DNA of 32,000 bases from Nitrosarchaeum sp. (GCA_025699025.1 JAILWJ010000001.1:536391-568390), one strand, 5' to 3'; shown: positions 13,819 to 32,000, counted from the first letter of the stretch. Made by a program: numbers and translations. Notes: generated by a model not told the origin, from the sequence alone.

Positions 13819-13824
13819 TCTACA

Positions 13825-16195: not shown

Positions 16196-16278
16196 GCAGA
16201 TATTCTGGCATCCGCCAAGATAGGAGGACACCACATTTTGTGTTTACAAAATGACGTACACGATGTTATGATGTGATA

Positions 16279-17130: not shown

Positions 17131-17712
17131 ATGAATTTAACACGTGGTTTTCTTGTTCTGACAGTTTCTGCATTATTCATGATGAGTTTTGGTTCGTATG
17201 TGTTTGCTCAAGAAGTTACAATTCAGAAACCACCACTAAGTTTAGGCGGCAACCACTTTGGTTCAATGATAAAGACCCAAACAGTTTCATCTGATGGCTC
17301 TATCTGGATATTTCTTACCACCACAGAACCTGTAGAAAGAGAACACATGACAATCAATGTAAGATTTACCGATGAGAATGGCAAACAGGTCAACGGTATC
17401 AACTATGACATCATAGCAACTCAGAATGAACAGATTATTTTGTCAGAAACAATGGTTCATCAGCGCATAGGCATTGGAGATCACCTCACACAAGCATTGC
17501 CAAGCGATGATGCAGTTAACGTAAAGATCACACTACAAGGCATAGGGACAAATCCTCCATTCACAGGACCGCAAGGGGAATCCATCCAGATTATTGCAGT
17601 TCCTGAATTTGGAACAGTTGCAATGATCATCCTCGGCATATCCATTTTGAGCATAGTGATGATCAGCAAAAAGGGCACCCTGTCATTTCTAAGCCAGAAA
17701 TATACGGTCTGA
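17131..17712 (+). CDS. Secreted protein with PEFG-CTERM archaeal sorting signal
   Basis: 193 aa. Signal peptide (LVLTVSALFMMSFGSYVFAQE). The C-terminal AVPEFGTVAMIILGISILSIVMISKKG gives PEFG, a TM helix and a basic patch. Confidence 0.75.
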   Translation: MNLTRGFLVLTVSALFMMSFGSYVFAQEVTIQKPPLSLGGNHFGSMIKTQTVSSDGSIWIFLTTTEPVEREHMTINVRFTDENGKQVNGINYDIIATQNEQIILSETMVHQRIGIGDHLTQALPSDDAVNVKITLQGIGTNPPFTGPQGESIQIIAVPEFGTVAMIILGISILSIVMISKKGTLSFLSQKYTV

Positions 17713-17935
17713 TCAGCACAATAGGAAATTGGTTCATGTTCTTAAGACCCAGTAATTTTGAGAATTTTATGTGATCTTGGGTCTATTTGGATTTTTAGAT
17801 CATATTTCTGAGCATCAAGGTTTTGCCTTGAAATTCTTTGCTACATAGTGGAACTTGTCTGTGTTTTTTTGATGCGAGATAAACTGTTGATCCATAGTAC
17901 CTTAGATCATAGGAAAGAAAATCGATTAATTTTTC

Positions 17936-18619
17936 TTATATCCTAATAAAGAAAAACAACACAGTTCCTGCCAGCACACCAAAGGTTATTGCTTTTAAAA
18001 CATACTCTTTCTTTTTAGCCTGCAACACATTTGAACTCTGCATAAAGTGCTTGTACTTTCTTGAAGTAATAACTAGCAAATAGGTAATAATGCCAGATAT
18101 TGCTGAGAGAAGCAACGTTTCTAGTGATATTGAATTTGACTGAATCGCAGATCCAGCAAAAACGGGCAGCATTCCCCACGAAAATACTGTTGATGCATTA
18201 TTATGAAATTTTCCTCCAAACAATTCCATATTATATGCAAAAAGAAAAAACCCCTCGGCGATCCCAATTGGAATTAATAATAGAGAATCAAGTACAGCAT
18301 AAAAAATTCCAATGCTAAATGATATCCCAAGTGCAGTCAACGCAATAATGACTAGTTTTCTTTTTGGGAGTTCGCCCCAAGGTTTTGTTTTTCCACAAAC
18401 TGCATCAAGAAGATGCGCAGACACACCCACTGCAAGAAAGTAAATTATGGCAATGGCGACGGTTCTTTCTATTGCAAACCCATCTATCAGCGAGCCCCAA
18501 ATTGCAAAACACATCACAATGCCAGTATAAGGCAAAAACAAAATCCCCACACTGGTTTTAAATTTTCTTGAACCAAACTTTGGCACAAACCATTCCCCAG
18601 TTCTGTCTTTTTGCACCAT
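17936..18619 (-). CDS. Polytopic membrane protein (hypothetical)
   Basis: 227 aa with about 6-7 hydrophobic segments. No family recognised. Confidence 0.55.
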   Translation of the reverse strand: MVQKDRTGEWFVPKFGSRKFKTSVGILFLPYTGIVMCFAIWGSLIDGFAIERTVAIAIIYFLAVGVSAHLLDAVCGKTKPWGELPKRKLVIIALTALGISFSIGIFYAVLDSLLLIPIGIAEGFFLFAYNMELFGGKFHNNASTVFSWGMLPVFAGSAIQSNSISLETLLLSAISGIITYLLVITSRKYKHFMQSSNVLQAKKKEYVLKAITFGVLAGTVLFFFIRI

Positions 18620-18686
18620 ATCAATTGGAGTTTATCGCTTATATCCTTCAGTTGTGGATTCAAAGCGGCATATTTTATAGTAAAAA

Positions 18687-19097
18687 ATGCCAACCCAAAC
18701 TATGGGCGTGTATAAAAAATTTATAAAAAAAGGCGTCAGCGAACCTTTAGAAAAAATCAGTTTTCATAAAAAGGCACCCATAAAGCGTCTATTGATGCTT
18801 GATAACAAACTAATTCCAGAATCTGATACCCACATAGCGGTTCATTTTGTAAGCGCAAATGGGAAAAAGATTTCCGAGTACAGTGAGTCGCACAAGCATG
18901 ATGCAGATGAGATTAACCTGATCTTGTCTGAAAACGGCAAATTAGCATATGAAATTCAACTTGAAGATGAAATTTACAAAGTTTCTTCGCCATCTACGGT
19001 GTTCATACCCAAAGGAGTCAGGCATCGGGCAAGAGTCTTGTCAGGTAGTGGGATCTTTGTATGCATAATTCTGTCAAGCAAGTACAAATCATCATGA
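18687..19097 (+). CDS. Cupin-fold protein (putative)
   Basis: 136 aa. The block SPSTVFIPKGVRHRARVLSGSGIFVCI resembles cupin motif 2 (P.G..H). Weak evidence. Confidence 0.45.
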   Translation: MPTQTMGVYKKFIKKGVSEPLEKISFHKKAPIKRLLMLDNKLIPESDTHIAVHFVSANGKKISEYSESHKHDADEINLILSENGKLAYEIQLEDEIYKVSSPSTVFIPKGVRHRARVLSGSGIFVCIILSSKYKSS

Positions 19098-19292
19098 AAT
19101 TAGCTTGATTGAAAACACTGTCAACTCACCCTTGTTTGAGGATAGAACTGCCAGTTTTGCCAATAACCTCCGTTTCTTCTTAATATCTCCAAACTGATGT
19201 GTTTTTTGTCTAGTTTGTCCAGAGTCACAATTGCCATAAAGCAAAGTCACCAATTAAACTACAAAAATATACTCCAATTGCCCGATTATACC

Positions 19293-19916
19293 ATGGATGA
19301 AAAAATTGCAACTGTTTTGGACAGATTGGAAAAGCAGGAAAAATACGAGCTTGATAATCATGACAAGGTCCCGCATCAAGAAAGAATGCTTGCAATTACT
19401 CCAAGCATAGGAAAGTTTTACAATATTTTACTACGTGCTGCCAAGGCAACCTCGGTATTGGAGATTGGGACATCTGTAGGATATTCTACAATTTGGTTTG
19501 CAGATGCCCTAAGAGAATCATTGAGTTCAAGCATCACGACAATCGAGGTTGATCAAAATAAAATAAAGCAGGCAAGAAAAAACTTTGCAGATTCCGGGGT
19601 GGATGATATCATAGAAATACGGCAGGGTGACGCATTGGATGTATTAAATAAGATTTATCAGGAAGCAGATCATAAATCAATTTTTGATTTTGTCTTCATT
19701 GATGCAGACAAGGAGAGATATCGAGAGTATTTTGATTTAAGTTTTAAGCTAGTTAAAGTGGGTGGAATAATCGCTGCCGATAACATTTTGAAGCCAGAAA
19801 GATTTGGAGATATGATGAGAGACTATCAGGAGCATGTCAGAAAAAATACAAAAATTCTTTCAGTAACAGTGCCAATTGATAATGGCGAAGAAATTTCATT
19901 CAAACTTGATGACTAG
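19293..19916 (+). CDS. Class I SAM-dependent O-methyltransferase (family 3, caffeoyl-CoA OMT-like)
   Basis: An ATG at 19293 is preferred over the upstream start. SAM motif VLEIGTSVGYST is present. Later blocks are ITTIEVD, FDFVFIDADKERYREYFDL and VKVGGIIAADNIL. Confidence 0.8.
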   Translation: MDEKIATVLDRLEKQEKYELDNHDKVPHQERMLAITPSIGKFYNILLRAAKATSVLEIGTSVGYSTIWFADALRESLSSSITTIEVDQNKIKQARKNFADSGVDDIIEIRQGDALDVLNKIYQEADHKSIFDFVFIDADKERYREYFDLSFKLVKVGGIIAADNILKPERFGDMMRDYQEHVRKNTKILSVTVPIDNGEEISFKLDD

Positions 19917-19924
19917 TTGCTTTG

Positions 19925-20026
19925 ATCTATTGTTTTAAAATAGTAGGCTGCCACTTATTTGTAGATGGTTTGTGTCTGATTTTCTCCATGCGTGTATGTT
20001 TTTGACACGGAAACGACATAATTCAT
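19925..20026 (-). pseudogene. Truncated homologue of the casposon Zn-ribbon basic protein (intact copy at 25050-25316)
   Basis: Minus-strand translation MNYVVSVSKTYTHGENQTQTIYK* compares with MKYVVSVSKTYTHRGNHRHKSTT in the intact gene. There is a premature stop at 19955-19957. Residual nucleotide similarity continues to about 19938. Confidence 0.7.
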
Positions 20027-20204
20027 GATACTATGCTACTGCAAACTAATAAGAACAGATTATGATGTTATTTTTTGTCTGGAAATGGCTTGCATAAAAC
20101 CACATAGATGGATCTATTGATTCAATGAGAGGTTGATAGAATACCAAAATATTGATGTGAGGAGAAGTTTATGGAGAAATTTCATGCCTGCGTAATTATT
20201 ATAT

Positions 20205-20705
20205 GTGTTTCCAGTGAAACTACTTTCTACGTTAAACAGACTCAAAAGGCACAAAATTGAGTGAGATGTTGTGGCTTTTGCTACTGACTCTGTATGCACT
20301 ACCAGAAAGGTAGCAAGTAGCTCAAATGAGCTAGGTCAGTTTAGTTTGGACAAGTCAGGAGATGACGTATTTTTCTTGCAAAACGGCATTTACCGGGTAA
20401 ACGGTAAATGGAAACAGAGAGGTTTGGGACATTTGGGAACAAAAGAGATTGAGCATCTTGATACCGTGGAAAAAGATGGAAAACTGTATTACAAGTTTAA
20501 GGTGTTACGTGCAGGGCAGTTGCGCTCTTCAATTATTCAAAATGACATTGATAATATCGGCAAGTTCTCAGAGATGACCAGACAGATTGATCTTAATGCG
20601 GATAAAAAGAGAACATGGCTGGGTCAGATCAAAACTGTCGATTGTAAAACAATAAATGATTCGATACCCATATCATTGAATCACATTAATAAAGAAAATC
20701 TCTAA
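20205..20705 (+). pseudogene. Family-B DNA polymerase fragment (C-terminal part, internally deleted, in-frame stop)
   Basis: 20265-20705 encodes VVAFATDSVCTT...GDDVFFLQNGIYRVNGKWKQRGLGHLGTKEIEHL...SLNHINKENL. By eye this is roughly 60 percent identical to residues about 449-594 of the intact PolB. 20205-20250 (VFPVKLLSTLNRLK) resembles PolB residues about 332-347. A stop lies at 20262-20264, and about 100 codons plus the whole N-terminal half are missing. Confidence 0.85.
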
Positions 20706-21022
20706 ATGATTTGTTTCTTCTTTAATTCGCTTATTACGGCTTCAGTTATTTCAGACGTCAATTGTTCAAGTTTATCTTTATATTGCATCATCACATTGTC
20801 AATTACTTCTTGGATTTTTTCTTGAGATTCTATCTTTTGTTGTGTATTTGTTTCGATGGCTCTGGCTATCGGTTCTATTTGATTTCTAACTTCTGAGAAT
20901 GCATCACGTACTGAATAATACACTTTATCAGAAACACCTCCTAGCTGCTCCTCTAAGTCTTGTTTCATTTTTTTCATTTTCTCTTCAATTTGATTAGAGA
21001 TATTTTCACCAGATGAATTCAT
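20702..21022 (-). CDS. Hypothetical coiled-coil protein (cargo of the decayed element)
   Basis: 106 aa E/K/Q-rich ORF between the PolB pseudogene and the terminal repeat. It has no counterpart in the intact element. Confidence 0.4.
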   Translation of the reverse strand: MNSSGENISNQIEEKMKKMKQDLEEQLGGVSDKVYYSVRDAFSEVRNQIEPIARAIETNTQQKIESQEKIQEVIDNVMMQYKDKLEQLTSEITEAVISELKKKQII

Positions 21023-21154
21023 CTATAAATAATTGAATTTGAACTAAATAAATATGATGATTCCAAATAAAATTACGTCAGAATTTTAGTTAGTATCACA
21101 CAGTTTTACTATTTTATGATCTTAAAGTCTTACGACAACTGTCATAATTTTATT

Positions 21155-21174
21155 CGTAAAAGGGGGGCGTTGCC
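21155..21174. repeat. Right terminal repeat of the decayed element (variant TIR with G6 tract)
   Basis: cgtaaaaggggggcgttgcc sits directly before the direct repeat. The intact right end reads cgaaatggggggattctatt. The G6 run lies 12 vs 11 nt from the shared ACTCTCTG core. Confidence 0.6.
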
Positions 21175-21195
21175 TTTTTACTCTCTGTCGATAAA
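21175..21195. repeat. Direct repeat, middle copy (target-site duplication; orphan copy of the aEF-2 3' end)
   Basis: tttttactctctgtcgataaa is identical 21/21 to 29998-30018. Its reverse complement encodes FIDRE-stop. Because of the A/T runs at the junctions, the true TSD is between about 13 and 21 bp. Confidence 0.9.
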
Positions 21196-21218
21196 AATAG
21201 AATCCCCCCATTTCGTGC
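21196..21218. repeat. Left terminal inverted repeat (perfect core)
   Basis: aatagaatccccccatttcgtgc is the exact reverse complement of 29977-29999. Imperfect similarity (blocks tgct, tttt, ggacta) continues to about 21250 vs 29945. Confidence 0.9.
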
Positions 21219-21312
21219 CTGAGTTTGTGCTAGTTTTGGTAATGGACTAGAACATAACGAAGATTATGATTTGTTGGAGAATAGTTATAACGAAATTACA
21301 AATCGATAATGT

Positions 21313-21561
21313 ATGTCTGATGATTATGACTTTCAAAAGAAATTAGCAAAGTATCAGTTAAAGGCTACTGCGATTTCGATTTTTGGAAGTACAATAATTG
21401 CATTAGGAATTGCTTTGGCTTCGATTTCTGTAACTATTGAAAATCAAGGAATGTCAATTTTAATTCTCACAATAGGAATAATGCTAATTCTATCCTCGTT
21501 ACTTATAGTTGTGATAAACTTGTGGCGAATCAGTAAACACATAGATAGAATCAACAAATGA
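21313..21561 (+). CDS. Small two-helix membrane protein, translationally coupled to cas1
   Basis: 82 aa with two hydrophobic helices. The stop overlaps the Cas1 start (ATGA at 21558-21561). Confidence 0.55.
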   Translation: MSDDYDFQKKLAKYQLKATAISIFGSTIIALGIALASISVTIENQGMSILILTIGIMLILSSLLIVVINLWRISKHIDRINK

Positions 21562-22562
21562 CCATTAAAGGAAAACAAAACCATTACAACGTAAAGTTTC
21601 TCAAAGGATACGGTCATTCAATTTCTGTAAAAGACTCCAGAATAATTCTAAAATCCAATCATGACCCATTCTCAGAGCCTGAGATTGAATCATGGTATGT
21701 CAAAAATATGCCATACGAAAAGATAATCCTTTCAGGTAAAGGCTACGTCTCAACTGAGGCATTATCAATACTATCTCAGAACAACCGTAACGTCATATTA
21801 TTAGACAATCACGGAAAACCTGTAACTTTCATGAATGGCATGATGGATTCACTCACTACAACAAAATATCGCATGGCTCAATATGATACATTTCGAGATG
21901 AATCAAAGTGTGAGTATTTGCGTCAGCAAATCATACAAAGTAAGAAAGAATCACAATTGAAACTTCTCAAATTAATTGGAAGTGATGTTACTGAACTGCC
22001 AGATTCAGAACACCTTTCTGCCAAAGTCTACTGGTCTGAATTCGCTAAATTCATTCCTGAAAAATATCAGTTCCATTCCAGAAATCAGAGTTTCATCAGA
22101 ACTAGCAAAAATAATGCAACTGATGTAATCAATGCTTTATTGAATTATGGTTATTCCGTTTTAGCTGGAGAAATCTCAAAATTTGTTTGTGGAATGGGAT
22201 TAGACCCATACTTTGGATTCATGCACAAATCTCATACGGGTTTTCAACCGTTGGTCTATGATATCATAGAGCCGTTTAGGTGGTTGGTCGATTATTCTGT
22301 GTATCAAATAGCAAACAATGGCAGTGACAGGCAGAAAATAAAACTAAAAGAGTACAGTTACACAAAAGATGGAACTGTGGTTATGGAATATTCTCTGATC
22401 AAGAGGTTTTTGGAAATGCTGGAAAGACAATTTCAAAAGGAGAGAAAATATGATTTTAGACATGGGAAGAAGACAAAGGATGGTTTGAAATCTGTACAGG
22501 AAATTACGATTGTAAAGACCATGATTCAGAATTTAGTAGAGTTTTGTCAAAAACATGTTTAG
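21558..22562 (+). CDS. cas1: Cas1-family integrase (casposase), stand-alone
   Basis: 334 aa. Cas1 signature blocks are NALLNYGYSVLAGE (E205, nt 22170), GLDPYFGFMHKS (H223, nt 22224) and PLVYDIIEPFRWLVD (D235/E238, nt 22260). These supply the conserved E-H-D metal-binding triad. The N-terminal beta-rich part (ILSGKGYVSTEALSILSQNNRNVILLDNHGKPV) fits the Cas1 N-domain. Confidence 0.9.
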   Translation: MTIKGKQNHYNVKFLKGYGHSISVKDSRIILKSNHDPFSEPEIESWYVKNMPYEKIILSGKGYVSTEALSILSQNNRNVILLDNHGKPVTFMNGMMDSLTTTKYRMAQYDTFRDESKCEYLRQQIIQSKKESQLKLLKLIGSDVTELPDSEHLSAKVYWSEFAKFIPEKYQFHSRNQSFIRTSKNNATDVINALLNYGYSVLAGEISKFVCGMGLDPYFGFMHKSHTGFQPLVYDIIEPFRWLVDYSVYQIANNGSDRQKIKLKEYSYTKDGTVVMEYSLIKRFLEMLERQFQKERKYDFRHGKKTKDGLKSVQEITIVKTMIQNLVEFCQKHV

Positions 22563-22589
22563 TACATTTCCAGTTTGATTTATAATAAT

Positions 22590-23300
22590 TCATTGCTCAA
22601 ATGACGGGATATTTTGGATGATAATTATCTCATTTGCTTTGACTATTGATTCAAGCATATCGTGTACGTCTTCAACTAGATTAAGATAATTATCCCATGT
22701 ATCAAAGGACATGTTTTTTCCATCAATAAAGTCAAACTGTTTATTTTTGTAATGTATTGTTGTGTTTCCCGGATTATCTGGAAGATATACTCCATTATTA
22801 TGAAACGAATTTCTGTAAAGTCTTAGAATATCTAACAATTTTTCATATTCATTTGAATCTAATGTGATATGTCTTGGACTTAACAACCAACTATACATAT
22901 TTTTGAAACTTCTCTTTGTATTTTCATATGCTGTATGATCCATAGATTTCACTATGGCTCTGAATGAGCTTTCTATCATTGAAAATAAAAAGAACACCAA
23001 ACTGAAACGAAGTGTTTTGTTAAAAGATTCTAATGTTTCATCAATTATGATTTTTGTTTCATTATTTGTAATGTCTCCAAATTGTTTCCACCAATCTTTT
23101 TGTTGTGCATGGTCTCTAGTTAAAACTGCACCCAATTCGGTTGAACGCAATACATTTTTGCATTTTATAAAAATTGCCAATCTTGCATCAGTTTTTTTCC
23201 AATTTGGATTTTGTTGTTGTAATGAAAAATATGTATCACAATATTTGTTTTTAATTTTTTCAAGTCTAATAGTTACAGATTTCCATTTTATGTCAGTCAT
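22590..23300 (-). CDS. Hypothetical cargo protein (possible HEPN/Abi-like helical domain)
   Basis: 236 aa. The block LLDILRLYRNSFHNNG resembles the R(N)xxxH helix of HEPN/Abi proteins, but the spacing is non-canonical. Confidence 0.5.
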   Translation of the reverse strand: MTDIKWKSVTIRLEKIKNKYCDTYFSLQQQNPNWKKTDARLAIFIKCKNVLRSTELGAVLTRDHAQQKDWWKQFGDITNNETKIIIDETLESFNKTLRFSLVFFLFSMIESSFRAIVKSMDHTAYENTKRSFKNMYSWLLSPRHITLDSNEYEKLLDILRLYRNSFHNNGVYLPDNPGNTTIHYKNKQFDFIDGKNMSFDTWDNYLNLVEDVHDMLESIVKANEIIIIQNIPSFEQ

Positions 23301-23312
23301 ACAAAAATGAAA

Positions 23313-23340
23313 ATTTATATGAACTTAAGCATATTGATTA
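23313..23340 (-). promoter_or_regulatory. Repeated promoter-like block, copy 1 (upstream of 22590-23300)
   Basis: atttatatgaacttaagcatattgatta. On the minus strand it reads ...caatatgcttaagttcatataaat, with a TATA-like box about 15-25 nt before the ATG. Confidence 0.45.
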
Positions 23341-23354
23341 GAACCGAATATGTT

Positions 23355-23699
23355 CTACTGAGGAACAAATTGGAGAAGTAAAAGATATCCTACAATCCAA
23401 CTAATACCGTAAATCAACAATCCTACTATCCAATGACCAAAAATTCGTATTGGAGCAAATATGGATACAAGAAAAGCTATTATAGATATCGCAATTAACC
23501 AGTTTCTCATCACATCACAATTGTACTGAGTTTGTTCATTATCCAATAATTCCAATTCACAGAATTCATCTAGGACAAAATTTGCAATAGCATATTGATT
23601 TGTGGGCACTTCAAATGTGGTTGAAATTCCAAATAGAATTCCTGCAATAAACCCTGCTTTAAAAACAAGAATACCTGTTGCAATTACACCTTTTGCCAT
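23355..23699 (-). CDS. Small membrane protein (cargo)
   Basis: 114 aa with 3-4 hydrophobic segments. Confidence 0.5.
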   Translation of the reverse strand: MAKGVIATGILVFKAGFIAGILFGISTTFEVPTNQYAIANFVLDEFCELELLDNEQTQYNCDVMRNWLIAISIIAFLVSIFAPIRIFGHWIVGLLIYGISWIVGYLLLLQFVPQ

Positions 23700-23707
23700 A
23701 ACATTAC

Positions 23708-23740
23708 AAATTTTTGTATGAACTTAAGCATATTGCACAT
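23708..23740 (-). promoter_or_regulatory. Repeated promoter-like block, copy 2 (upstream of 23355-23699)
   Basis: aaatttttgtatgaacttaagcatattgcacat. The core tatgaacttaagcatattg (23717-23735) is identical to 23318-23336. Confidence 0.45.
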
Positions 23741-23863
23741 CAAGATTAAATACAAATTTTGCAATCATACCCATGCTCGAAGAAGCAATCCAAGAGTTCA
23801 TGGCATTTGTAGGCAGGTTCTGTCTGGATAATCTGCCATATCTTACATGCAGTTCATAAAATT

Positions 23864-24076
23864 CTATTTTTTCTTTTTTTGAATCTTTGGTTTTGCTAAA
23901 ACCTTACCAAGAAAAAGCGATCCAAATATGATTGGAAGTATTCCAAAACCCCAAAATTCGTATGCTGTAAGTGGGTTTACATCTTCATACGAAACTAGAA
24001 TATTTGCAATTACGATTAATCCAATACACACTAAACCAAAGTTAATACAAATCGAGATAATTTTAGAGAGTTTCAT
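23864..24076 (-). CDS. Small two-helix membrane protein (cargo)
   Basis: 70 aa with two hydrophobic helices and a KPKIQKKKK tail. Confidence 0.45.
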   Translation of the reverse strand: MKLSKIISICINFGLVCIGLIVIANILVSYEDVNPLTAYEFWGFGILPIIFGSLFLGKVLAKPKIQKKKK

Positions 24077-24099
24077 TCTTACTCATTAAATAACATATA

Positions 24100-24128
24100 A
24101 AATTTGTTTATGAACTTAAACCTGTTGG
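24100..24128 (-). promoter_or_regulatory. Repeated promoter-like block, copy 3 (divergent region 24077-24162)
   Basis: aaaatttgtttatgaacttaaacctgttgg. This is a degenerate version of the same block (tatgaacttaaacctgttg). Confidence 0.4.
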
Positions 24129-24162
24129 AAAATGAAATAAATCAGTATTCAGTGGTTTGATT

Positions 24163-25053
24163 ATGAAATGGATTTTTTTGTTAATTGCATTTGGTTTTTT
24201 CAGTCCTGTATATGCAGAAGAATCTACGTTAAATGACATCCAAACACAATTAGATAATCAGATAAATCAGCAAAATCTAAAGAAATTAGAACAAAGAGTT
24301 TCAAATCTAGAAAACCAATCATCATTTGAAGACCAGTTTGTTTCAAGCGAAGAATATACTAAATTAATGAGTCGATTACATATTTTAGAAAATAATGATC
24401 AATTGAAAAATGAACTGATTTCTTTGAAAACCGTTCTTGATACAGAACTATCAGAAATGAATAGTTCAATGACAATTGCACAAAAAACTGCCACTGATTC
24501 ATTTTTGTTAGGAATTTACATTTCGATTGGGTTTGCAGGAATCGCAATAGGAGCTACAATGCTGTATTCTAGAAAAATGGAAATACAAACAGAATTGATA
24601 AAAACAGACATCAAAACACGGATTAGACCAATTTTAAGCAGAAAAGAATTAGAAAAAAAAGTTAGGAATTCAAATGAACAATTAGTAAAACATGTATTCA
24701 CTCTAACTCGACATAAAGCATTATTTCATTTTCAAAACACTGGAACATTGCCAGCCGTAAACATTTCACGAAATTATTATGCAGAGATCAGAGAAACACC
24801 ATCAGATGTAATCAAATTGAATCCTAAAGAATATGTTGATGTGATTAAAATGGCAACCTTAGCTCCAAATGAATATTATAGTACAGATGTTTTTTGGTTA
24901 GACCCATGTTTTGATAATGCCGTTGATAGAAATAATTGCTATTTTGGATTAGTTATTTGGTATCACGATTCCAAAGGGACAAGATATTATTATCATATCG
25001 AAGGATTTTTTGATCATGGGGAATTGATGATAACTCATGTTGATATGAATTAA
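24163..25053 (+). CDS. Membrane-anchored coiled-coil protein (cargo, hypothetical)
   Basis: An ATG at 24163 is preferred over the TTG at 24157. Signal/anchor MKWIFLLIAFGFFSPVYA, then a Q/N/E-rich coiled coil, a central TM (FLLGIYISIGFAGIAIGATMLY) and a C-terminal globular part. Confidence 0.55.
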   Translation: MKWIFLLIAFGFFSPVYAEESTLNDIQTQLDNQINQQNLKKLEQRVSNLENQSSFEDQFVSSEEYTKLMSRLHILENNDQLKNELISLKTVLDTELSEMNSSMTIAQKTATDSFLLGIYISIGFAGIAIGATMLYSRKMEIQTELIKTDIKTRIRPILSRKELEKKVRNSNEQLVKHVFTLTRHKALFHFQNTGTLPAVNISRNYYAEIRETPSDVIKLNPKEYVDVIKMATLAPNEYYSTDVFWLDPCFDNAVDRNNCYFGLVIWYHDSKGTRYYYHIEGFFDHGELMITHVDMN

Positions 25054-25316
25054 AATTCACAATACGGACATTCTAATTCTTCTTTACTAGATTTCACAAA
25101 TCCCAAAAACGCATTTCCACAATCAGTACAAAAATACTTTAATCGTTTTCTCTTCTGAGCCTTGTAGTACAATGCCTGCAACCAACTAACTCTCTGAGTT
25201 CTAAAATTTCCATCTTCATCATAGTAATAGATATGCCATCTCTTCTTAGTTGTTGATTTGTGCCTGTGATTTCCACGATGTGTGTAAGTTTTTGACACTG
25301 AAACAACATACTTCAT
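25050..25316 (-). CDS. Basic Zn-ribbon protein conserved in both casposon copies
   Basis: 88 aa, rich in K/R/H/Y. C-terminal CTDC ... CPYC Zn ribbon. The N-terminus and upstream region are homologous to 19938-20065. Confidence 0.6.
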   Translation of the reverse strand: MKYVVSVSKTYTHRGNHRHKSTTKKRWHIYYYDEDGNFRTQRVSWLQALYYKAQKRKRLKYFCTDCGNAFLGFVKSSKEELECPYCEF

Positions 25317-25327
25317 GATACCTCAAT

Positions 25328-25358
25328 GCTACTTCAAACTAATAAGAACAGATTATGA
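25328..25358 (-). promoter_or_regulatory. Highly conserved non-coding block upstream of the Zn-ribbon gene
   Basis: gctacttcaaactaataagaacagattatga matches 20035-20065 (gctactgcaaactaataagaacagattatga) at 30 of 31 positions. This is far above the similarity of the flanking coding DNA. On the minus strand, cttattag lies about 25-30 nt before the ATG (TATA-like). Confidence 0.45.
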
Positions 25359-25916
25359 CTATTCTAAATTCTCAATCGTGCCTTTACTTAACAAAGAATC
25401 AGGAGCATGAACAAAAGGAACTTGTTTTTTTGAACCAGTATTTTTTGTAAACTTTGCAATTGATTGCATCAACAAAAGTGTATCACGTAGCTGTTCCCGT
25501 ATGTGCCATTTGAATTCTTCTGGCATTAGCTTCATCAGACCTTCTAATCCAATGTTAAAGAAATTATAATACATGATAAATGAGAATATTTTGTCAGGAT
25601 CCTCGTCAGATTGTTTTTGATCAGCAATTGATGAAGCATATTTTAAAGTGGTCATAAAATCTTCAAAACTTCTACTTGATAGAATTTTTGCTTTGTAGGA
25701 ATTAGGCAAGGGTGAAAAGGCATAATGAAAATCTGAAAATGACTGTTCGATCTTTGATTGAATTTCTCGATAAAACCTATATTTGTTTGAAATTGGAAAA
25801 ACTTCTGGATTCCAAAGATTAGCATATTCGTCATGACTAATCAAAGTTAGTTTTGGATTTGTCTTTTTTATTTCATTCATAATCTTTTCTTGCTTTGCAG
25901 TTTGTCTTTTTTTCAT
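25359..25916 (-). CDS. Hypothetical protein (cargo)
   Basis: 185 aa ORF. No family recognised. Confidence 0.5.
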   Translation of the reverse strand: MKKRQTAKQEKIMNEIKKTNPKLTLISHDEYANLWNPEVFPISNKYRFYREIQSKIEQSFSDFHYAFSPLPNSYKAKILSSRSFEDFMTTLKYASSIADQKQSDEDPDKIFSFIMYYNFFNIGLEGLMKLMPEEFKWHIREQLRDTLLLMQSIAKFTKNTGSKKQVPFVHAPDSLLSKGTIENLE

Positions 25917-25950
25917 TATTATTATTCTATTTTAGACAAATTTAAGCATA

Positions 25951-26199
25951 ATGTTCGTATATACAGTAATGAAGTCAAAAACAAACCAAAAACAAAGAGC
26001 AGACGAGCCAATCGAGACAGACTTTGGCAACAGGCAGGTATCCCACCAGAATTTTTCAAGAATTGTGGCACTGCCTAAAATTGCTCTGCAAAACTGTGGG
26101 ATAACGTCACAGGTATCTGTGAAACTAGTCCTGCAAAACGGAGAAAAATTTCTCAAAATTACTCCGGCAAAAACAAAAGGAGGTGAACATACTGAGTGA
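25951..26199 (+). CDS. Putative AbrB/SpoVT-like DNA-binding protein
   Basis: 82 aa (alternative start at 25969). SRIVALPKIALQNCGITSQVSVKLVLQNGEKFLKITP fits the looped-hinge-helix pattern (v.iPk.i...lgi..g..v.....g..i.i.P). It is the first gene of the plus-strand block that ends with PolB. Confidence 0.4.
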   Translation: MFVYTVMKSKTNQKQRADEPIETDFGNRQVSHQNFSRIVALPKIALQNCGITSQVSVKLVLQNGEKFLKITPAKTKGGEHTE

Positions 26200-26527
26200 A
26201 ACTACCTATCCTCCATTTTTGAAATGGGGAGAATATGCCTCTGATGATCCAGAAAATCCAGATGTACTAGAACTCAAGGTTGCAGATACTGAGACATTTG
26301 AGACGGAATTTTCAATCAATGTAATGGCATTGATCAAGGAAAAGAAATCATGGATAGAATACAACATCCCACTGAAGAGCCACGAATCAAAGAATTCATC
26401 ACTGCTAAACCAGTGGAACAGATTCTCAAAGAATCTCAAGAAAGGAGACAGACTAGTTCTAAAGACGTGGCTTGGAACATCAAAGAACTCTAGGAAGATC
26501 AGGAGGTACAGTCTAGAGAAACTCTAG
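26183..26527 (+). CDS. Hypothetical protein (replication-module neighbour)
   Basis: 114 aa with a GTG start preceded by aaaggagg. No family recognised. Confidence 0.45.
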   Translation: MNILSETTYPPFLKWGEYASDDPENPDVLELKVADTETFETEFSINVMALIKEKKSWIEYNIPLKSHESKNSSLLNQWNRFSKNLKKGDRLVLKTWLGTSKNSRKIRRYSLEKL

Positions 26528-26530
26528 ACA

Positions 26531-26545
26531 TTTTTTTCTTTTTTT
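26531..26545 (+). terminator. Oligo-T tract (archaeal-type terminator candidate)
   Basis: tttttttcttttttt lies immediately after the stop at 26525-26527. Confidence 0.35.
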
Positions 26546-26555
26546 GGTGATTGTG

Positions 26556-26873
26556 ATGATGGAGGATAAAGACAAGCTTGTAAAACAATTGGATGCCCTA
26601 AAGATTTTTCCAAACAACAGACTAGTAAGAGATCTAAAGAATCAGATTAAAAATAAATTAAAAAAATTAGAAACTGTAAAACCTGCAAAACCAAAGAGAG
26701 ACCCAAACGTCTCACGGTCAAGCAAGCTCAAGAGATATCACAACTACATGAGACAGATAAGAAACAACTTTCCAAATTTATCATACAGCCAGATAAGAAA
26801 ACAGTTCTCAAAAAGAAAGCGTGGCGATGACGTATCCATCCCTGATGCAGTATGGCAGAACCCATCCCCGTAA
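26556..26873 (+). CDS. Small highly basic protein overlapping the PolB start (DNA-binding or terminal-protein candidate)
   Basis: About 105 aa from the ATG at 26556. KPAKPKRDPNVSRSSKLKRYHNYMRQIRNNFPNLSYSQIRKQFSKRKRG is loosely HMG-box-like (PKR...aromatic...P.LS). It overlaps the polB start by 22 nt in another frame. Confidence 0.5.
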   Translation: MMEDKDKLVKQLDALKIFPNNRLVRDLKNQIKNKLKKLETVKPAKPKRDPNVSRSSKLKRYHNYMRQIRNNFPNLSYSQIRKQFSKRKRGDDVSIPDAVWQNPSP

Positions 26874-28636
26874 CTGACTGCAAGAGCCTCAGGCGAGTCT
26901 TTACAAAAAAGCCTCAGAACAGAGACCCTGCAAAGTCGCACAAGAGAAAAGTCTATGCAATAGACACCGAGACGTATCAAGGAAACATCTTTCTGATTGC
27001 AGATTCAGACGGCAGATTCTTGGATAAGATCACGCCTGAATCGTGCCTAGACTGGCTATTTTGCAGGAAATACGAGGGAAATTGGTGCTTTTTTTACAAT
27101 CTTGGCTATGATGCAGAAGTCATACTCAAACTATTGGGTTCGGAACTATTCAGGTATAGAAACACTGGCAAGCTCAAATTTTCATTTCAAAAATATACCA
27201 TAGAGTATCATCCAAACAAGTGCCTCAAAATCTCAAAGGGTCACCACTCTGTGATATTTTACGATGTAGCACAGTTTTATCATGCAAGTCTGGCAGATGC
27301 ATATCAGAACAACATCAAGAAATTACCAAAGAAATATCTGGAAACAAAATCCAAGAGAAACCAGTTCTCTGTAACATACTACAAGAGAAACACAAGGCAG
27401 GTAAGAGACTATTGCATACAGGATTGCAAGCTGACAAAAGAACTAGCCATCCACTGGATCAAACTATTTCATGACGCATTTGGGTTCTATCCTGCAAGAT
27501 GGGTTAGTTCAGGATACTTGGCTGAAAAAGTCTTGATCAACAACAACATAGAGTTTCCAAAGTTTGATGATACGCCATATGAGGTGCAGGAGATGGCATT
27601 TGCCTCATACTATGGGGGAAGATTTGAGATTACAAAGCGTGGATATATTGGGACTGCATACAAGTATGACATAAACTCTGCATATCCATACTCTCTGACA
27701 AAAATTCCAGACCTGACAAAAGGAAGATGGATTAAGAGAAAGTCAATCCACCCAAAAGCAGAATTGGGTTTTTTCAGAATTATCGCAGACGTTCCAGACT
27801 GCAAGTACATTCCTCCATTTCCGTTTCGTACCAATGGACTCATTATTTTTCCCAGTGGGAAATTTGAGACATACGTTACATTAGATGAACTCAAAGTTGC
27901 AGACAAGAGATACTACAAAATTCTAGATTCCTACCAGTTCATTCCAGATGGAAAAATAACGTATCCTTTCAAAAAATTTGTAGAGTCAATGTATGAGAAA
28001 AGATTACAATTAAAGAAAGAGGGCAATCCGTTGCAACTGCCAATCAAGATAATACTGAATTCCATATATGGCAAGACTGGTCAGAAAACAAACAGAATAA
28101 TGGGAAATCTGTTCAATCCCGTGATATTTGGTACCATTACAGGCATGACCCGTGCGTATCTCTATGACTTTGTCATGAAAAATGCCATAGAAAACCAAGT
28201 GGTGTTTTTTGCAACAGATTCAGTATGCACTACTGTTCCACTGGATGTTGATTCAGACAGACTGGGAGAGTTTTCTTTGGAAGAAAAGGCAGACGATGTA
28301 TTTGTGTTGCAGAACGGATTCTATCGGTTTAATGGCAAATGGAAGCAGAGAGGTATTGGCAAACTAGGCAGTAAAGAGATCGAACATCTTGAGACATTTG
28401 AGAGAAATGGAAAGTTGTACTATCGATTCAAGGTTTTGAGAAACTCTAGGTTGAGATCATCAATATTGCAGGATTCAATATCTCAGATTGGTAGGATTAG
28501 AGAGCATGTTAGGGAGGTTAATTTGAACGCAGATAGGAAAAGGTTATGGTTAAATCAACTAGACAACATTAATTCAAAAAAATATTTAGATTCATTTCCA
28601 CTTTCTTTAAACCATTTAAACAAAAAGAACATTTGA
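26852..28636 (+). CDS. polB: Family-B DNA polymerase (compact, protein-primed-like type)
   Basis: 594 aa. ExoI YAIDTET (D38/E40), ExoII FFYNLGYDAEVIL, ExoIII YCIQDCKLT. Pol motif A YDINSAYPY (D273, nt 27668), motif B KIILNSIYGKTGQ, motif C FFATDSV (D456, nt 28217). Confidence 0.9.
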   Translation: MAEPIPVTDCKSLRRVFTKKPQNRDPAKSHKRKVYAIDTETYQGNIFLIADSDGRFLDKITPESCLDWLFCRKYEGNWCFFYNLGYDAEVILKLLGSELFRYRNTGKLKFSFQKYTIEYHPNKCLKISKGHHSVIFYDVAQFYHASLADAYQNNIKKLPKKYLETKSKRNQFSVTYYKRNTRQVRDYCIQDCKLTKELAIHWIKLFHDAFGFYPARWVSSGYLAEKVLINNNIEFPKFDDTPYEVQEMAFASYYGGRFEITKRGYIGTAYKYDINSAYPYSLTKIPDLTKGRWIKRKSIHPKAELGFFRIIADVPDCKYIPPFPFRTNGLIIFPSGKFETYVTLDELKVADKRYYKILDSYQFIPDGKITYPFKKFVESMYEKRLQLKKEGNPLQLPIKIILNSIYGKTGQKTNRIMGNLFNPVIFGTITGMTRAYLYDFVMKNAIENQVVFFATDSVCTTVPLDVDSDRLGEFSLEEKADDVFVLQNGFYRFNGKWKQRGIGKLGSKEIEHLETFERNGKLYYRFKVLRNSRLRSSILQDSISQIGRIREHVREVNLNADRKRLWLNQLDNINSKKYLDSFPLSLNHLNKKNI

Positions 28637-28642
28637 ATTATT

Positions 28643-29923
28643 ATGATTTTAACATTAGAAAACTGCGCACATTATTTAGATGCAATAGAAAACTTTGTTG
28701 ATTCTGAATGGTTAAAAATACAAACTGATAAAATAATTGAGTATTATAATACAGTAAACAATACAAGCATTTTAGGAAAATTAGAAGATTATTCAAATCC
28801 ATTGGCATTGTTAATTTATCAAGCAGACAAAACATTATCTCGATTAACAGATGATAAACACGCGCATTCATCTGTTGAATTAATTAAAGCAGTTTCATTA
28901 GGAATGTATTTGGAAAAATTAACTGAAGCAAATCTTGATTTTAAAGATAAATTAACTGATTTGACATCCTCGGATAAAAAATCATTTGAAAAAATAATTT
29001 TTGAGTTAGACATAGCAACTGCATTTTTGAATTCAGGACATTCTGTTGAATTTATCAAAACAGACTCCACACACAATAATCGTACTGCTGATTTACGAAT
29101 AGACGGAACAATAGAAGTAGAATGTAAGAAAAAAGATAAACTCACTAAATTCGACATTCAAAACCAAGATCGATGGAACACATTAAATCGTAAACTCCGA
29201 GCATTTTTTAATGAACAAAAAAAATATCCATTCATCTATATTTTTGTAAAAAATGATCTTTCTCATGAAATTATTCAGAAAATTCTAAAACAAATTAGAA
29301 AAATGACGCATAACAATGAAACCGCATATTCAGATTCAGAAATAAAAATCATGATTGAAGAGTTGTGTAAAAATGACGAAATCATGTCATTAGGATTTCA
29401 AGCAAGAAATAGTGATGAGTTGATGGGAAGAATCAATCCCAAAATAATTGACACCATAATAAAATCCAAGATAAAATACACTCATTTGATGGATTATGAA
29501 TTAATACATCCAGATCATTTTTCAGATGATTCAAAAATTCAAATTGTAAATGAGAATGTGTTTGTAAGTGAACTAAGACGTTATGTTTTCAAATCTTTGA
29601 GAAATGTTCATCGAATGAATGGCATTATATCATCAATTAAAAATGCAAGAAACCAACTTTCTGGAGATACATGTGGTATTATTTGTGTGAATTTTACTCA
29701 TTTAACCGATACTATGATAGAACAAGATTACAAAAATTTGACAAGTTTGATAAATCAGTTTCTTAAAAATAATTCAAAAGTTTCAGCAGTTATTGTTTCT
29801 TCAGAATTCTATTCCACTTCTAGAGATATGAGATTTATTCATAAAGCGCTAATAATTCGAAATCCATTGGCACGCCATAAACTCCCAGATAATTTTCAAT
29901 TCCTTAATGATGTTAGCATGTAA
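28643..29923 (+). CDS. Hypothetical 426-aa cargo protein with PD-(D/E)xK-like motif
   Basis: Very AT-rich ORF. IIFELDIATAF...HSVEFIKTD...TADLRIDGTIEVECKKK gives an E ... D(150) ... E(158/160).K(162) arrangement, like restriction-endonuclease-fold nucleases. Confidence 0.55.
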   Translation: MILTLENCAHYLDAIENFVDSEWLKIQTDKIIEYYNTVNNTSILGKLEDYSNPLALLIYQADKTLSRLTDDKHAHSSVELIKAVSLGMYLEKLTEANLDFKDKLTDLTSSDKKSFEKIIFELDIATAFLNSGHSVEFIKTDSTHNNRTADLRIDGTIEVECKKKDKLTKFDIQNQDRWNTLNRKLRAFFNEQKKYPFIYIFVKNDLSHEIIQKILKQIRKMTHNNETAYSDSEIKIMIEELCKNDEIMSLGFQARNSDELMGRINPKIIDTIIKSKIKYTHLMDYELIHPDHFSDDSKIQIVNENVFVSELRRYVFKSLRNVHRMNGIISSIKNARNQLSGDTCGIICVNFTHLTDTMIEQDYKNLTSLINQFLKNNSKVSAVIVSSEFYSTSRDMRFIHKALIIRNPLARHKLPDNFQFLNDVSM

Positions 29924-29976
29924 TTTTCATAATATTCGATAATTTTTAGTCCTAACGAAAAACAGCAGTGAGTTAC

Positions 29977-29999
29977 GCACGAAATGGGGGGATTCTATT
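29977..29999. repeat. Right terminal inverted repeat (perfect core)
   Basis: gcacgaaatggggggattctatt is the exact reverse complement of 21196-21218. Confidence 0.9.
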
Positions 30000-30018
30000 T
30001 TTACTCTCTGTCGATAAA
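29998..30018. repeat. Direct repeat, right copy (target-site duplication; functional 3' end of aEF-2)
   Basis: tttttactctctgtcgataaa is identical to 21175-21195. It covers the aEF-2 codons F-I-D-R-E and the stop (30001-30003). Confidence 0.9.
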
Positions 30019-32000
30019 CTCGTTGGCAGTTGGTGGGTCTGGTGCAAGTCCCTTTCTCTTCCTAATGTCTGCAACGGCAGCTGCCAGCATTGACTTTGGA
30101 ACTTCAGTCCATGCCTTAAATGACGTATTCCAGGTTGCACGTCCTGCAGTCTGGCCCCTCATCTCCTCAGATAATGTAAATGTCTCTGAAGCTGGAATCT
30201 CGCCGACAATGATGCTTGATGCGCCCTTTTGTGCCATGTCAAGTACCTTGCCCCTCTTGCCTGAAAGAACGGTAGCGACGTTTCCAACCAGGTCAGTTGG
30301 CACACGAACCTCGATTGCCAGTGTAGGCTCTAGCACTGCAACGCCTGCAGTGAGCAGTGCGCCCATGCATGCCCTGCGTGATGCAGGCCCTAGCTGAGAC
30401 AGTCCCCTGTGTGCAGTGTCCTCGTGTGGTACAAAGTGGGTAAATGTAAACTTGCAGTCCCTCATCTGCTCTTTGCACAGCGGACCTTCCTTCATGACCT
30501 CCTCAAATCCTGAATTAATAGAATCAGTAGACTCTTGCACAAACTGGACACCCTTGGTGCCGTTAATCAAAACATTTCCGCGAGAGTCAAACTTCATGAC
30601 GCGCTTAATGGTATCAGTGTCCCAGCCGGCGCCCTTTAGCAACTCGGCTACAACCTTCTTGTCTTTCATATCGCTTATTTCGCCTGTTCGCAACATGTTT
30701 GCAATTTTTGGCTCTAGTGGCTCTACTTTCATGAATATCTTGTTGTGTCTGTTTGGAGACTTTGACATGATTGGCTCACATGTGCCCTTTACTGTCTCCC
30801 TGTAGTTGATCAGCGGCTCTGATGTCACGATATCTACTTTGGCATCCTGGATACGGTGTGTTGCAACATCAAGGTGCAAGACGCCCATTCCTGCCATGAT
30901 GGTCTCGCCGCTTTCTTCATCAATCTTTACTACCAGGTTTGGATCCTCAATGGTGAGTTGTTTTAGCACTTCGACTAGCTTTGGCAAGTCTTTGGGGTGC
31001 TTTGGCTCTATTGCAACCTGAACCACGGGTTCGGACACGTACTTTACCCCCTCAAACATTTGAATTCCCTTAATTGAAGAGATGGTGTTTCCTGCCCGAG
31101 CTTCGGTCAGCCCCAACAGTGCGGGAATGTTTCCGGCTCCAAGTTCTGCGACCTGCTCTCTCTGGTTTCCCATGAAAAAGTTGACAGACTGGACCCTTCC
31201 CTCTCTTTTTGAATCAATAATGTTAATTGTTTGCCCGTCTTTTATTGTGCCAGAGAACAGTCGTCCGATTGCAACCGGTCCTGCCGCAGGATCCAGCACC
31301 ATGTTTACAATCATCATGATTGTTGGCCCATCATCGCTGCATGCAAGCAGTGCCTTTCCGACATCAGATTCCAAGTCTCCCTTCCAGATTTGCGGGATTC
31401 TATACTTTACTGCCACGTGTGGAGGCGGATGGTGCTTTACAACCATTCCCAAGACGGCATCGGCCAGAGGCGCCTTTTCTACAAGGTCCTGGACCTTTTC
31501 GTTTTGGTATGCGTCAATGACATCCTTGAATGTAATTCCTTTTTCTTTCATCACGTCAATGTTGATTGCCCACCTGTCTTTTGCAGAGCCAAAGGTGACG
31601 CTGGCATCCTGAATCGAGACACGCCACTTGTCCTTGTATTCAGGTTCTGCATATGTGTCAATTAATTGGTTAAAGTTTGACACCACTTCTGCCAGCTGCT
31701 GCTGCATCTTTTCAGGGGTGAGTCTTAGTTCTTTGATGAGCCTGTCTACCTTGTTGATAAACAATACAGGCCTTACCCTTTCCTCAAGTGCCATCCTGGT
31801 TACAGTCTCAGTCTGAGTCATGATTCCCTCAACAGAGTCACATACCACTACTGCTCCATCAATTGCCCTGAGGCTGCGAATGACCCTGCCACTAAAGTCC
31901 ACGTGTCCGGGGGTATCAATCATGTTAATGACGTATTCTTTTCCTTTTTGTGAAAAGTGCAAAGTTACATTTGCCTGATAAATTGTAATTCCTCTTGCCT
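30001..32000 (-). CDS. fusA: Translation elongation factor aEF-2 (5' end outside window)
   Basis: The reading frame stays open to the window edge (ARGITIYQANVTLHFSQKGKEYVINMIDTPGHVDFSG). GTPase G-motifs, domains II-V and the H...G diphthamide-region style sequence (HEDTAHRG) are present. The ORF ends ANEFIDRE-stop. Confidence 0.95.
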   Translation of the reverse strand, partial: ARGITIYQANVTLHFSQKGKEYVINMIDTPGHVDFSGRVIRSLRAIDGAVVVCDSVEGIMTQTETVTRMALEERVRPVLFINKVDRLIKELRLTPEKMQQQLAEVVSNFNQLIDTYAEPEYKDKWRVSIQDASVTFGSAKDRWAINIDVMKEKGITFKDVIDAYQNEKVQDLVEKAPLADAVLGMVVKHHPPPHVAVKYRIPQIWKGDLESDVGKALLACSDDGPTIMMIVNMVLDPAAGPVAIGRLFSGTIKDGQTINIIDSKREGRVQSVNFFMGNQREQVAELGAGNIPALLGLTEARAGNTISSIKGIQMFEGVKYVSEPVVQVAIEPKHPKDLPKLVEVLKQLTIEDPNLVVKIDEESGETIMAGMGVLHLDVATHRIQDAKVDIVTSEPLINYRETVKGTCEPIMSKSPNRHNKIFMKVEPLEPKIANMLRTGEISDMKDKKVVAELLKGAGWDTDTIKRVMKFDSRGNVLINGTKGVQFVQESTDSINSGFEEVMKEGPLCKEQMRDCKFTFTHFVPHEDTAHRGLSQLGPASRRACMGALLTAGVAVLEPTLAIEVRVPTDLVGNVATVLSGKRGKVLDMAQKGASSIIVGEIPASETFTLSEEMRGQTAGRATWNTSFKAWTEVPKSMLAAAVADIRKRKGLAPDPPTANEFIDRE

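Follow-up and report, generated by a model that had tools for sequence, protein, structure and literature searches.

Evidence for an intact family 1 casposon at the 3′-end of the aEF-2 gene in a Nitrosarchaeum genome

The CRISPR adaptation machinery has been proposed to descend from casposons, and no more than a few family 1 elements have been described in papers since the family was defined in 2014 (PMC4046053), extended in 2019 and, with respect to its Cas1 integrase (the casposase), dissected biochemically in 2021 (PMC8464041). Three to four small uncharacterised genes directly upstream of polB are a hallmark of the family (PMC4046053, PMC6563490), and a thaumarchaeal host and insertion at the 3′-end of aEF-2 are typical, although not universal, for its members. 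The casposase of NitAR1-C1, which is the family 1 element carried by Ca. Nitrosopumilus koreensis AR1 (Krupovic et al., 2014; PMC4046053), integrates DNA ending in terminal inverted repeats (TIRs) alone, without Cas2, into a target composed of TTT and the target-site duplication (TSD), with duplication of 13 bp (Wang et al., 2021; PMC8464041). Only these 13 bp of the 22-bp repeat seen in NitAR1-C1 are a true duplication, the extra bases being a “leader” with the required TTT and sequence beyond the duplication, and positions A1, A11 and T13 of the TSD are essential in vitro for the AR1 casposase (PMC8464041). Here, we analyze a stretch of 32,000 nucleotides from Nitrosarchaeum sp. (JAILWJ010000001.1; hereafter, the window), in which positions 21193-30002 very probably represent a family 1 casposon of 8,810 bp that is intact and adjoins the 3′-end of aEF-2. 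An earlier note on this DNA had proposed a casposon, and the proposal is borne out by a Cas1 closely related to the AR1 casposase, a shared TIR and insertion at the aEF-2 stop codon.

The ends of the element and its target comprise the following features.

21193-21218, plus strand: left TIR, 26 nt, perfect
29977-30002, minus strand: right TIR, 26 nt, perfect, AAAAATAGAATCCCCCCATTTCGTGC read inward
21180-21192: distal copy of the 13-bp TSD ACTCTCTGTCGAT
30003-30015: aEF-2-proximal copy of the 13-bp TSD ACTCTCTGTCGAT, with the TTT leader on the gene side
30001-32000 (open reading frame (ORF) 30001-31962), minus strand: 3′-part of aEF-2, the target gene, running off the window end

The 23-bp inverted repeats and 21-bp direct repeats described in the earlier note were located exactly where it had placed them. 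The 23-mer AATAGAATCCCCCCATTTCGTGC occurs once per strand, at 21196-21218 (plus) and 29977-29999 (minus); copies of the 19-mer TTTACTCTCTGTCGATAAA span 21177-21195 and 30000-30018, extending to 21175-21195 and 29998-30018 for the full 21-mer. Each repeat has exactly two matches in the window at up to 3 mismatches, where shuffled sequences (n = 100) lead one to expect 0. The inverted repeat, however, is perfect over 26 nt rather than 23, and 82% complementary across 49 nt, so the 21-bp direct repeat resolves into a 13-bp duplication plus TIR termini, and the boundaries shift by 3 nt from 21196-29999 to 21193-30002. The 21-bp repeat is thus composed of T5, ACTCTCTGTCGAT and A3, in parallel to the apparent repeat of NitAR1-C1: the left-hand T5 ends the TIR of a neighboring casposon remnant, and the A3 is the start of the intact element's own TIR and mimics the complement of the TTT leader. 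While the direct repeats are identical over 21 bp as claimed, the true target duplication is therefore most likely 13 bp, since the site is homologous to the experimentally mapped site of NitAR1-C1 (PMC8464041) and a natural 13-bp case exists in a Nitrosopumilus metagenome-assembled genome (MAG). In the latter (locus L031, OZ252092.1, 10889-13905), an element of about 3 kb with TIRs of about 30 nt lies right after the aEF-2 stop codon and is flanked by a perfect 13-bp TSD, ATCGACAAAGTAT. The distal copy of this TSD is followed by AGCAAG, not A5, so that the repeat is exactly 13 bp with a non-A sequence after it, which supports the 13-bp reading. No match to Cas1 or PolB was obtained in this 3-kb element, which is a candidate non-autonomous mini-casposon.

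The target gene encodes six EF-G/EF-2 Pfam domains, and its DNA is 84% identical to aEF-2 of N. koreensis AR1. Its stop codon, TAA at 30003-30001, is rebuilt from the T that is the last base of the TSD and the AA of the casposon terminus, and the insertion has thereby left aEF-2 intact. With a GC content of 32.9%, the element lies below the host flank (41.7%) and aEF-2 (48%), as does a further block distal to it, 16934-21179 (36.1%).

The two enzymes of the element are encoded by the following genes.

21558-22562, plus strand: casposase, stand-alone Cas1, 334 amino acids, PF01867 (Cas_Cas1), E = 1.6e-42
26852-28636, plus strand: protein-primed-type PolB, 594 amino acids, PF03175 (DNA_pol_B_2), E = 1.2e-28

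Both enzymes match the descriptions in the earlier note, namely a 334-amino-acid Cas1 with a catalytic triad and a 594-amino-acid PolB with ExoI-III and Pol A-C motifs. Cas1 is a compact protein with a single Pfam domain and no fused helix-turn-helix (HTH) or Zn-binding domain, and it carries the motifs NYGYSVLAGE (E205), GFMH (H223) and YDIIEPFR (D235/E238). It is 85% identical, without gaps, to the casposase of N. koreensis AR1, about 83-84% identical to that of N. sediminis AR2 (NitAR2-C1) and 80% identical to that of N. adriaticus. The residues R113, K117, K184, Y197 and Y234, which were found to be important in the AR1 casposase (PMC8464041), are all kept. The closest solved structure is that of the Methanosarcina mazei casposase (6OPM, E = 1e-28). 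A search for relatives of this Cas1 gave 1,058 homologues, and the named ones are essentially all from ammonia-oxidising archaea; an identical Cas1, encoded on a 776-kb contig of a Nitrosarchaeum sp. MAG, is already in GenBank, annotated only as “CRISPR-associated endonuclease Cas1.” An identity of 80-88% to named family 1 casposases suggests that the protein belongs to the family 1 clade. By analogy with the AR1 enzyme, to which the in vitro demonstration belongs, it would be expected to integrate TIR-ended DNA site-specifically. PolB is 85% identical to its counterpart in NitAR1-C1 and 83% to that in NitAR2-C1, and its Exo I-III and Pol A-C motifs are intact: AIDTETY (36), YNLGYDAEV (82), YCIQD (187), YDINSAYP (272), KIILNSIYG (399) and FFATDSV (452). 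The Pfam search gave no match of this ORF to the cellular-type PF00136, and its family membership points to a protein-primed mode of priming. The earlier note's statements on what the locus lacks hold as well: no recombinase or transposase was found among the remaining ORFs of the element in Pfam, PHROGs and PADLOC scans, and searches of the 32 kb for tandem arrays, Rfam families (including CRISPR), tRNA genes, cas2 and cas4 found none.

The element thus combines a lone Cas1, a PF03175 PolB, TIRs, a TSD, pre-polB genes, a thaumarchaeal host and presence/absence polymorphism among relatives, all of which characterize family 1. Assignment to family 2, which is marked by a Cas1 with a C-terminal HTH, an HNH nuclease, a PolB not of the protein-primed kind and a tRNA-gene target, was considered and rejected: there is no HTH or HNH, PolB is PF03175, and the target is aEF-2 rather than a tRNA gene.

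NitAR1-C1 shares the target with the window element. Its junctions in the AR1 locus (L002) read GAGTTT-ATTGATAAAGAGT-AAAAATAGAATCCCCCC... and ...GGGGGGATTCTATTTTT-ATTGATAAAGAGT-AAAAAGGCAG..., that is, TTT, then the 13-bp TSD, then the TIR at the 3′-end of aEF-2; the first approximately 20 nt of the TIR match the window TIR, both elements hold three copies of a 19-nt motif, and in both genomes the distal TSD is followed by a decayed casposon terminus of the GGCA type. Seven genes (those for Cas1, a 298-amino-acid protein, an 88-amino-acid protein, three small proteins and PolB) are collinear, with 57-85% protein identity. By contrast, NitAR1-C1 is inserted in the opposite orientation relative to aEF-2, its host belongs to Nitrosopumilus rather than Nitrosarchaeum, and six of the 13 window ORFs are not common to both: NitAR1-C1 holds an SLFN/AlbA_2 gene where the window has a 426-amino-acid PD-ExK-like gene, it carries other minus-strand cargo, and its winged-helix gene of 204 amino acids is missing from the window element. 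The TSD, ACTCTCTGTCGAT, reads ATCGACAGAGAGT in the orientation of aEF-2 and is identical to that of NitAR1-C1, ATTGATAAAGAGT, at 10 of 13 positions, with A1, A11 and T13 conserved; the three differences track the synonymous or near-synonymous aEF-2 codons of the hosts (FIDRE* vs. FIDKE*). They include the ATAA “ruler” (TSD positions 5-8 of the AR1 site), which reads ACAG in the window element, and the site is therefore a natural target variant. NitAR2-C1 of Ca. Nitrosopumilus sediminis AR2 resembles the window element in having its polB end beside aEF-2 and in all 26 nt of the TIR; it differs in that no homologue of the 298-, 236-, 185- and 426-amino-acid ORFs was detected there and in its TSD variant, ATCGATAAAGAAT.

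As to whether the copy is a published element or a new one, which the earlier note had left undecided, it is a close relative of the published elements, not one of them, and its sequence is in GenBank. No paper describing it was found, and the only mention of a Nitrosarchaeum casposon concerns another strain. The family, the target, the TSD and the integrase chemistry are already published and the concept is unchanged by this copy, which adds a well-preserved Nitrosarchaeum example with perfect ends, intact enzymes and a new cargo set.

Comparison with 80 related aEF-2 loci, 78 of which were usable for counting TIRs (in the first 30 nt after the stop codon), places the element in the context of its target site. 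TIR-like sequences are lacking after the stop codon in 51 of the 78 loci and directly follow it in at least 27, mostly without cas1 or polB, that is, as solo TIRs or fragments. They fall into two classes, TAGAATCCCCCC and GG[GC]AAAGCCCCCC. A full-length cas1 together with polB was found within 10 kb downstream of aEF-2 in none of the 80 loci, and solo TIRs appear to outnumber intact family 1 elements. Where gene fragments remain beside aEF-2, they derive from Cas1 in one orientation and from PolB in the opposite one. Several contigs (L006, L020, L022 and L029) break right at the TIR. Empty sites, for which the earlier note had suggested a search, exist among the relatives: in the closest of them (L004, L034, L036, L052, L062 and L027), a homologue of window ORF 15067-15645 comes about 90-250 bp or less after the end of aEF-2. 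Since the stop codon and this homologue nearly adjoin there, roughly 14 kb of the window are extra relative to these genomes.

A different intact casposon occupies the same site in another Nitrosarchaeum MAG (L084; JAILWV010000002.1, 8003-18596). It lies beside aEF-2 at the same TSD, ACTCTCTGTCGAT, and is bounded by TIRs of about 55 nt of the GGGAAAGCCCCCC class; its Cas1 is 88% identical to that of the window element, whereas its PolB is only 57% identical, a mismatch that suggests recombination between Cas1 and PolB modules. Distal to it is a remnant that ends in a TIR of the TAGAATCCCCCC class. The two genomes are therefore reciprocal, the window with an intact TAGAATCCCCCC-type element and L084 with a GGGAAAGCCCCCC-type one, each having in its distal slot a decayed element of the other's TIR class. 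For near-identical backgrounds to show this reciprocal arrangement, a casposon must have been gained or replaced since the split of the two lineages.

These observations can be accommodated by the following mechanism. The casposase would recognize the last codons of aEF-2, in the form of the TTT leader and the 13-bp ATCGACAGAGAGT, and would join the 3′-OH ends of the TIR termini to the two strands 13 bp apart, after which gap repair would duplicate the 13 bp. The A5/T5 termini would rebuild the aEF-2 stop codon (T from the target and AA from the element) and recreate a TTT leader plus target at the far end, which would explain why the visible direct repeat is 21 bp. As the termini are symmetric, insertion would be possible either way round; the window copy has its polB end beside aEF-2. 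The protein-primed-type PolB is presumed to copy the element, self-replication by casposon PolB having been hypothesized previously (PMC4046053), and both replication by protein priming and the mode of excision are to be read as suppositions. The site has been used repeatedly, with an older, decayed casposon (16934-21179) lying distal to the intact element and sharing a TSD copy with it. The newest element would then be the one nearest aEF-2, although this polarity is not guaranteed, because a TTT leader also arises at the distal TSD from the T-rich terminus of the casposon. The window copy may be active.

Similar phenomena are known from other casposons. In Ca. N. adriaticus NF5, the casposons NitNF5-C1 and NitNF5-C2 lie in tandem at ef-2 (PMC6563490), and M. 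mazei casposons have been described both as solo TIRs and in alternative orientations (PMC4779613). Reuse of the target site with shared TSDs, decay to solo TIRs and insertion in both orientations all recur in the window and the 80 loci, with the differences that the array in the window has one decayed member and that the M. mazei observations concern casposons outside family 1. Having been published for NF5 and M. mazei, array formation, solo TIRs and variable orientation are not new in themselves; they are less documented for family 1. A likeness to CRISPR-Cas adaptation by Cas1-Cas2 is also apparent in the homologous integrase, the leader-proximal recognition motif with a duplicated “repeat,” and the analogous stacking on the leader side. 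By contrast, the window contains no Cas2, array or spacers, the integrated DNA is an element with its own polymerase, and the target is the end of a protein-coding gene.

Three other explanations of the locus have to be weighed. The public annotation of the identical Cas1 and the limited size of the window could be taken to mean that cas1 serves adaptation in a CRISPR-Cas system whose array and further cas genes lie just beyond the 32 kb and that the repeats are coincidental. We regard this as scarcely conceivable, given the lack of a tandem array, Rfam CRISPR family, cas2 or cas4 in the 32 kb, the position of cas1 inside 26-nt perfect TIRs and a duplicated target (0 such repeats being expected by chance), the 85% identity to a casposase that integrates without Cas2 (PMC8464041), a casposase as the best match among solved structures, and the absence of the whole block from relatives. 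Eleven ORFs without detectable function, and the fact that the nearest polymerases to family 1 PolB are those of the archaeal viruses His1 and His2 (PMC4046053), leave room for a virus or linear plasmid that has integrated, carries a protein-primed PolB and merely uses Cas1 as an integrase; it would have an extrachromosomal phase and virion or partition ORFs. However, the PHROG search detected neither a capsid nor a packaging ATPase and, apart from one weak match to a family of unknown function, nothing else; the conserved core comprises no more than cas1, polB and small ORFs, and the cargo varies among relatives, as it does in transposons; this origin is very improbable. A fixed, immobile island, in which a domesticated or dead casposon is inherited vertically, is somewhat easier to imagine, as most relatives with casposon traces at aEF-2 keep only solo TIRs or gene fragments and the neighboring remnant shows decay as the usual fate. 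It is nonetheless unlikely, because the TIRs are identical at 26 of 26 positions and the TSDs at 13 of 13 (21 of 21 with flanks), the core ORFs are full-length with catalytic motifs, the GC content is still 9 points under that of the host, and a genome with 97%-identical flanks has a different intact casposon at this site, implying gain or replacement after divergence.

Several points nevertheless weigh against the interpretation as an intact family 1 casposon or limit its details. The insertion appears to be recent, judging from the perfect TIRs and TSDs and the intact ORFs, but these fall short of proving competence. No casposon is known to us for which self-replication by PolB, a terminal protein or an excision mechanism has been demonstrated, and a candidate terminal protein could not be identified among the proteins of the window element; the three small ORFs preceding polB are the obvious places to look and may be regarded as candidates. 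The 13-bp TSD is assigned by homology, and the sequence alone fits any length from 13 to 21 bp equally well. The control of spacing may differ from that at the AR1 site, since ACAG stands in place of the ATAA ruler. Finally, the window ends inside aEF-2, so that a more distant CRISPR locus is possible; such a locus would be irrelevant to the window cas1, because the TIR and TSD boundaries enclose this gene.

It is also tempting to speculate that family 1 casposons are currently mobile and compete for the aEF-2 site within one Nitrosarchaeum species, a proposal on which the balance of our judgment falls just to the side of doubt. The reciprocal pattern of the two genomes would mean that each new insertion is added at the leader-proximal duplication, in the manner of CRISPR spacers. 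The elements also look modular (Cas1 88% vs. PolB 57%). The comparative set of empty sites, solo TIRs, a 3-kb candidate derivative and two intact casposons at one site is usable for studies of targeting and array build-up. The most useful by-products of the analysis are the polymorphism of the aEF-2 site within a species, the mismatch between the Cas1 and PolB modules, the candidate mini-casposon in L031 and the 19-nt motif.

The remaining genes of the window element and the copies of this motif are arranged as follows.

21313-21561, plus strand: small ORF of 82 amino acids, element-specific, overlapping the cas1 start
22590-23300, minus strand: element-specific gene, 236 amino acids, no family match
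23355-23699, minus strand: element-specific gene, 114 amino acids, no family match
23864-24076, minus strand: element-specific gene, 70 amino acids, no family match
23318-23336, 23717-23735 and 24109-24127: three copies of the 19-nt quasi-palindromic motif TATGAACTTAAGCATATTG, 0 expected by chance
24157-25053, plus strand: conserved protein, 298 amino acids, with 57% amino acid identity over its full length to a 265-amino-acid ORF of NitAR1-C1
25050-25316, minus strand: zinc-ribbon-like core protein, 88 amino acids, 77% identical to NitAR1-C1 and 85% to NitAR2-C1, weak Zn_ribbon_8 match
25359-25916, minus strand: element-specific gene, 185 amino acids, not homologous to the 204-amino-acid winged-helix gene of NitAR1-C1 at the same position
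25951-26199, 26183-26527 and 26544-26873, plus strand: three small family 1 core genes upstream of polB, the last overlapping the polB start
28643-29923, plus strand: cargo gene, 426 amino acids, adjoining the right TIR, no Pfam, PHROG or PADLOC match

The three small pre-polB ORFs have amino acid identities of 58-84% to NitAR1-C1, 81-87% to NitAR2-C1 and 63-89% to L084. No family match in Pfam or PHROGs was found for the 298-amino-acid protein. The 82-amino-acid ORF may encode a membrane protein, judging from weak, sub-threshold family matches. The 236-, 114- and 70-amino-acid proteins have no homologue in NitAR1-C1, NitAR2-C1 or L084; the first of these contains an R-x6-H string, a possible HEPN motif, and a Pfam scan of this protein at E-values up to 10 yielded nothing relevant to HEPN. 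The 426-amino-acid protein has only 12 homologues among 5.8 billion proteins, which share an invariant P149-D150...E158-x-E160-C-K162 motif. Its AlphaFold2 model has a mean pLDDT of 84, and a fold search of the PDB with this model gave no credible structural neighbor. The protein may be a PD-(D/E)xK (restriction-endonuclease-like) nuclease, which is a guess from the motif rather than a finding.

Each copy of TATGAACTTAAGCATATTG precedes a minus-strand cargo gene, approximately 15-50 nt upstream of its start codon. The three copies in NitAR1-C1 (L002 11435-11453, 11673-11691 and 12015-12033), two of which are 100% identical to the motif, precede genes that are not homologous to those of the window element, and even the coding regions of the two elements are only about 79% identical. 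The motif is probably a shared casposon-specific promoter or operator, and, should the elements be mobile as speculated above, it may be a portable one for exchangeable cargo cassettes. L084 has the TATGAACTTAAGCATATTG motif at about 9153-9171.

Distal to the intact element, the DNA from 16934 to 21179 contains the following features.

19939-21179: remnant of another, older casposon that is oriented like the intact element
21155-21179: TIR-like terminus of the remnant, of the other sequence class, AAAAAGGCAACGCCCCCCTTTTACG read inward; AAAAAGGCAACGCCCCCC...
20702-21022, minus strand: ORF of 106 amino acids in the remnant
20247-20711: C-terminal PolB fragment in the remnant, 59% amino acid identity to the intact PolB
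19939-20076: piece of the remnant matching the Zn-ribbon gene region
16934-19938: older inserted block that probably completes the decayed casposon, absent from the empty sites that were checked
17131-17712, plus strand: ORF of the block
17936-18619, minus strand: ORF of the block
18687-19097, plus strand: ORF of the block, cupin-like
19197-19916, plus strand: ORF of the block, O-methyltransferase

No cas1 and no left TIR were seen in the remnant, and a fuzzy search of the whole window with up to 6 errors found neither a third TSD nor a left TIR for it. A TIR of this GGCA/GGGA-CCCCCC type is also found after the distal TSD in N. koreensis AR1 and at the ends of the intact casposon in L084. In AR1, homologues of 17936-18619 and 18687-19097 occur behind this TIR, at the corresponding position after NitAR1-C1. 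The outer boundary of the block was set at 16934, where L084, which is 97.1% identical over 8924-16934, diverges exactly. The sequence CATCAGATAA at this position was considered as a TSD and is not claimed as one, as it resembles the TSD end only weakly. Taken together, 16934-21179 is probably older inserted DNA, most simply the carcass of an earlier casposon. The O-methyltransferase gene at 19197-19916 (PF01596) also matches the PADLOC model “mad2” (E = 1.7e-19); its paralogues, with 42-47% identity, are found a few kb beyond aEF-2 in many relatives, and it may be either cargo or a displaced host gene.

Between the array boundary and the winged-helix gene at 15067-15645 lies a region (15646-16933) with a GNAT acetyltransferase gene (16279-16725, minus strand) and about 600 bp of non-coding DNA. 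It is common to L084 and absent from the clean empty sites that were checked (e.g., L004, L034 and L036), and homologues of the GNAT region are located 1-4 kb downstream of aEF-2 in L031 and L040. This region may be an even older insertion or a lineage-specific gene. ORF 15067-15645 (minus strand), the first gene after aEF-2 in empty sites, encodes a winged-helix (Penicillinase_R-like) protein. A relationship to casposon ORF 25359-25916 was considered and rejected, there being no similarity (E = 0.19). The protein is homologous over its full length to that encoded by a NitAR1-C1 gene (L002 13174-13788, minus strand; 27% identity, E = 3e-22), and the winged-helix gene may therefore be either a host gene that was captured by a casposon or a casposon gene that was domesticated.

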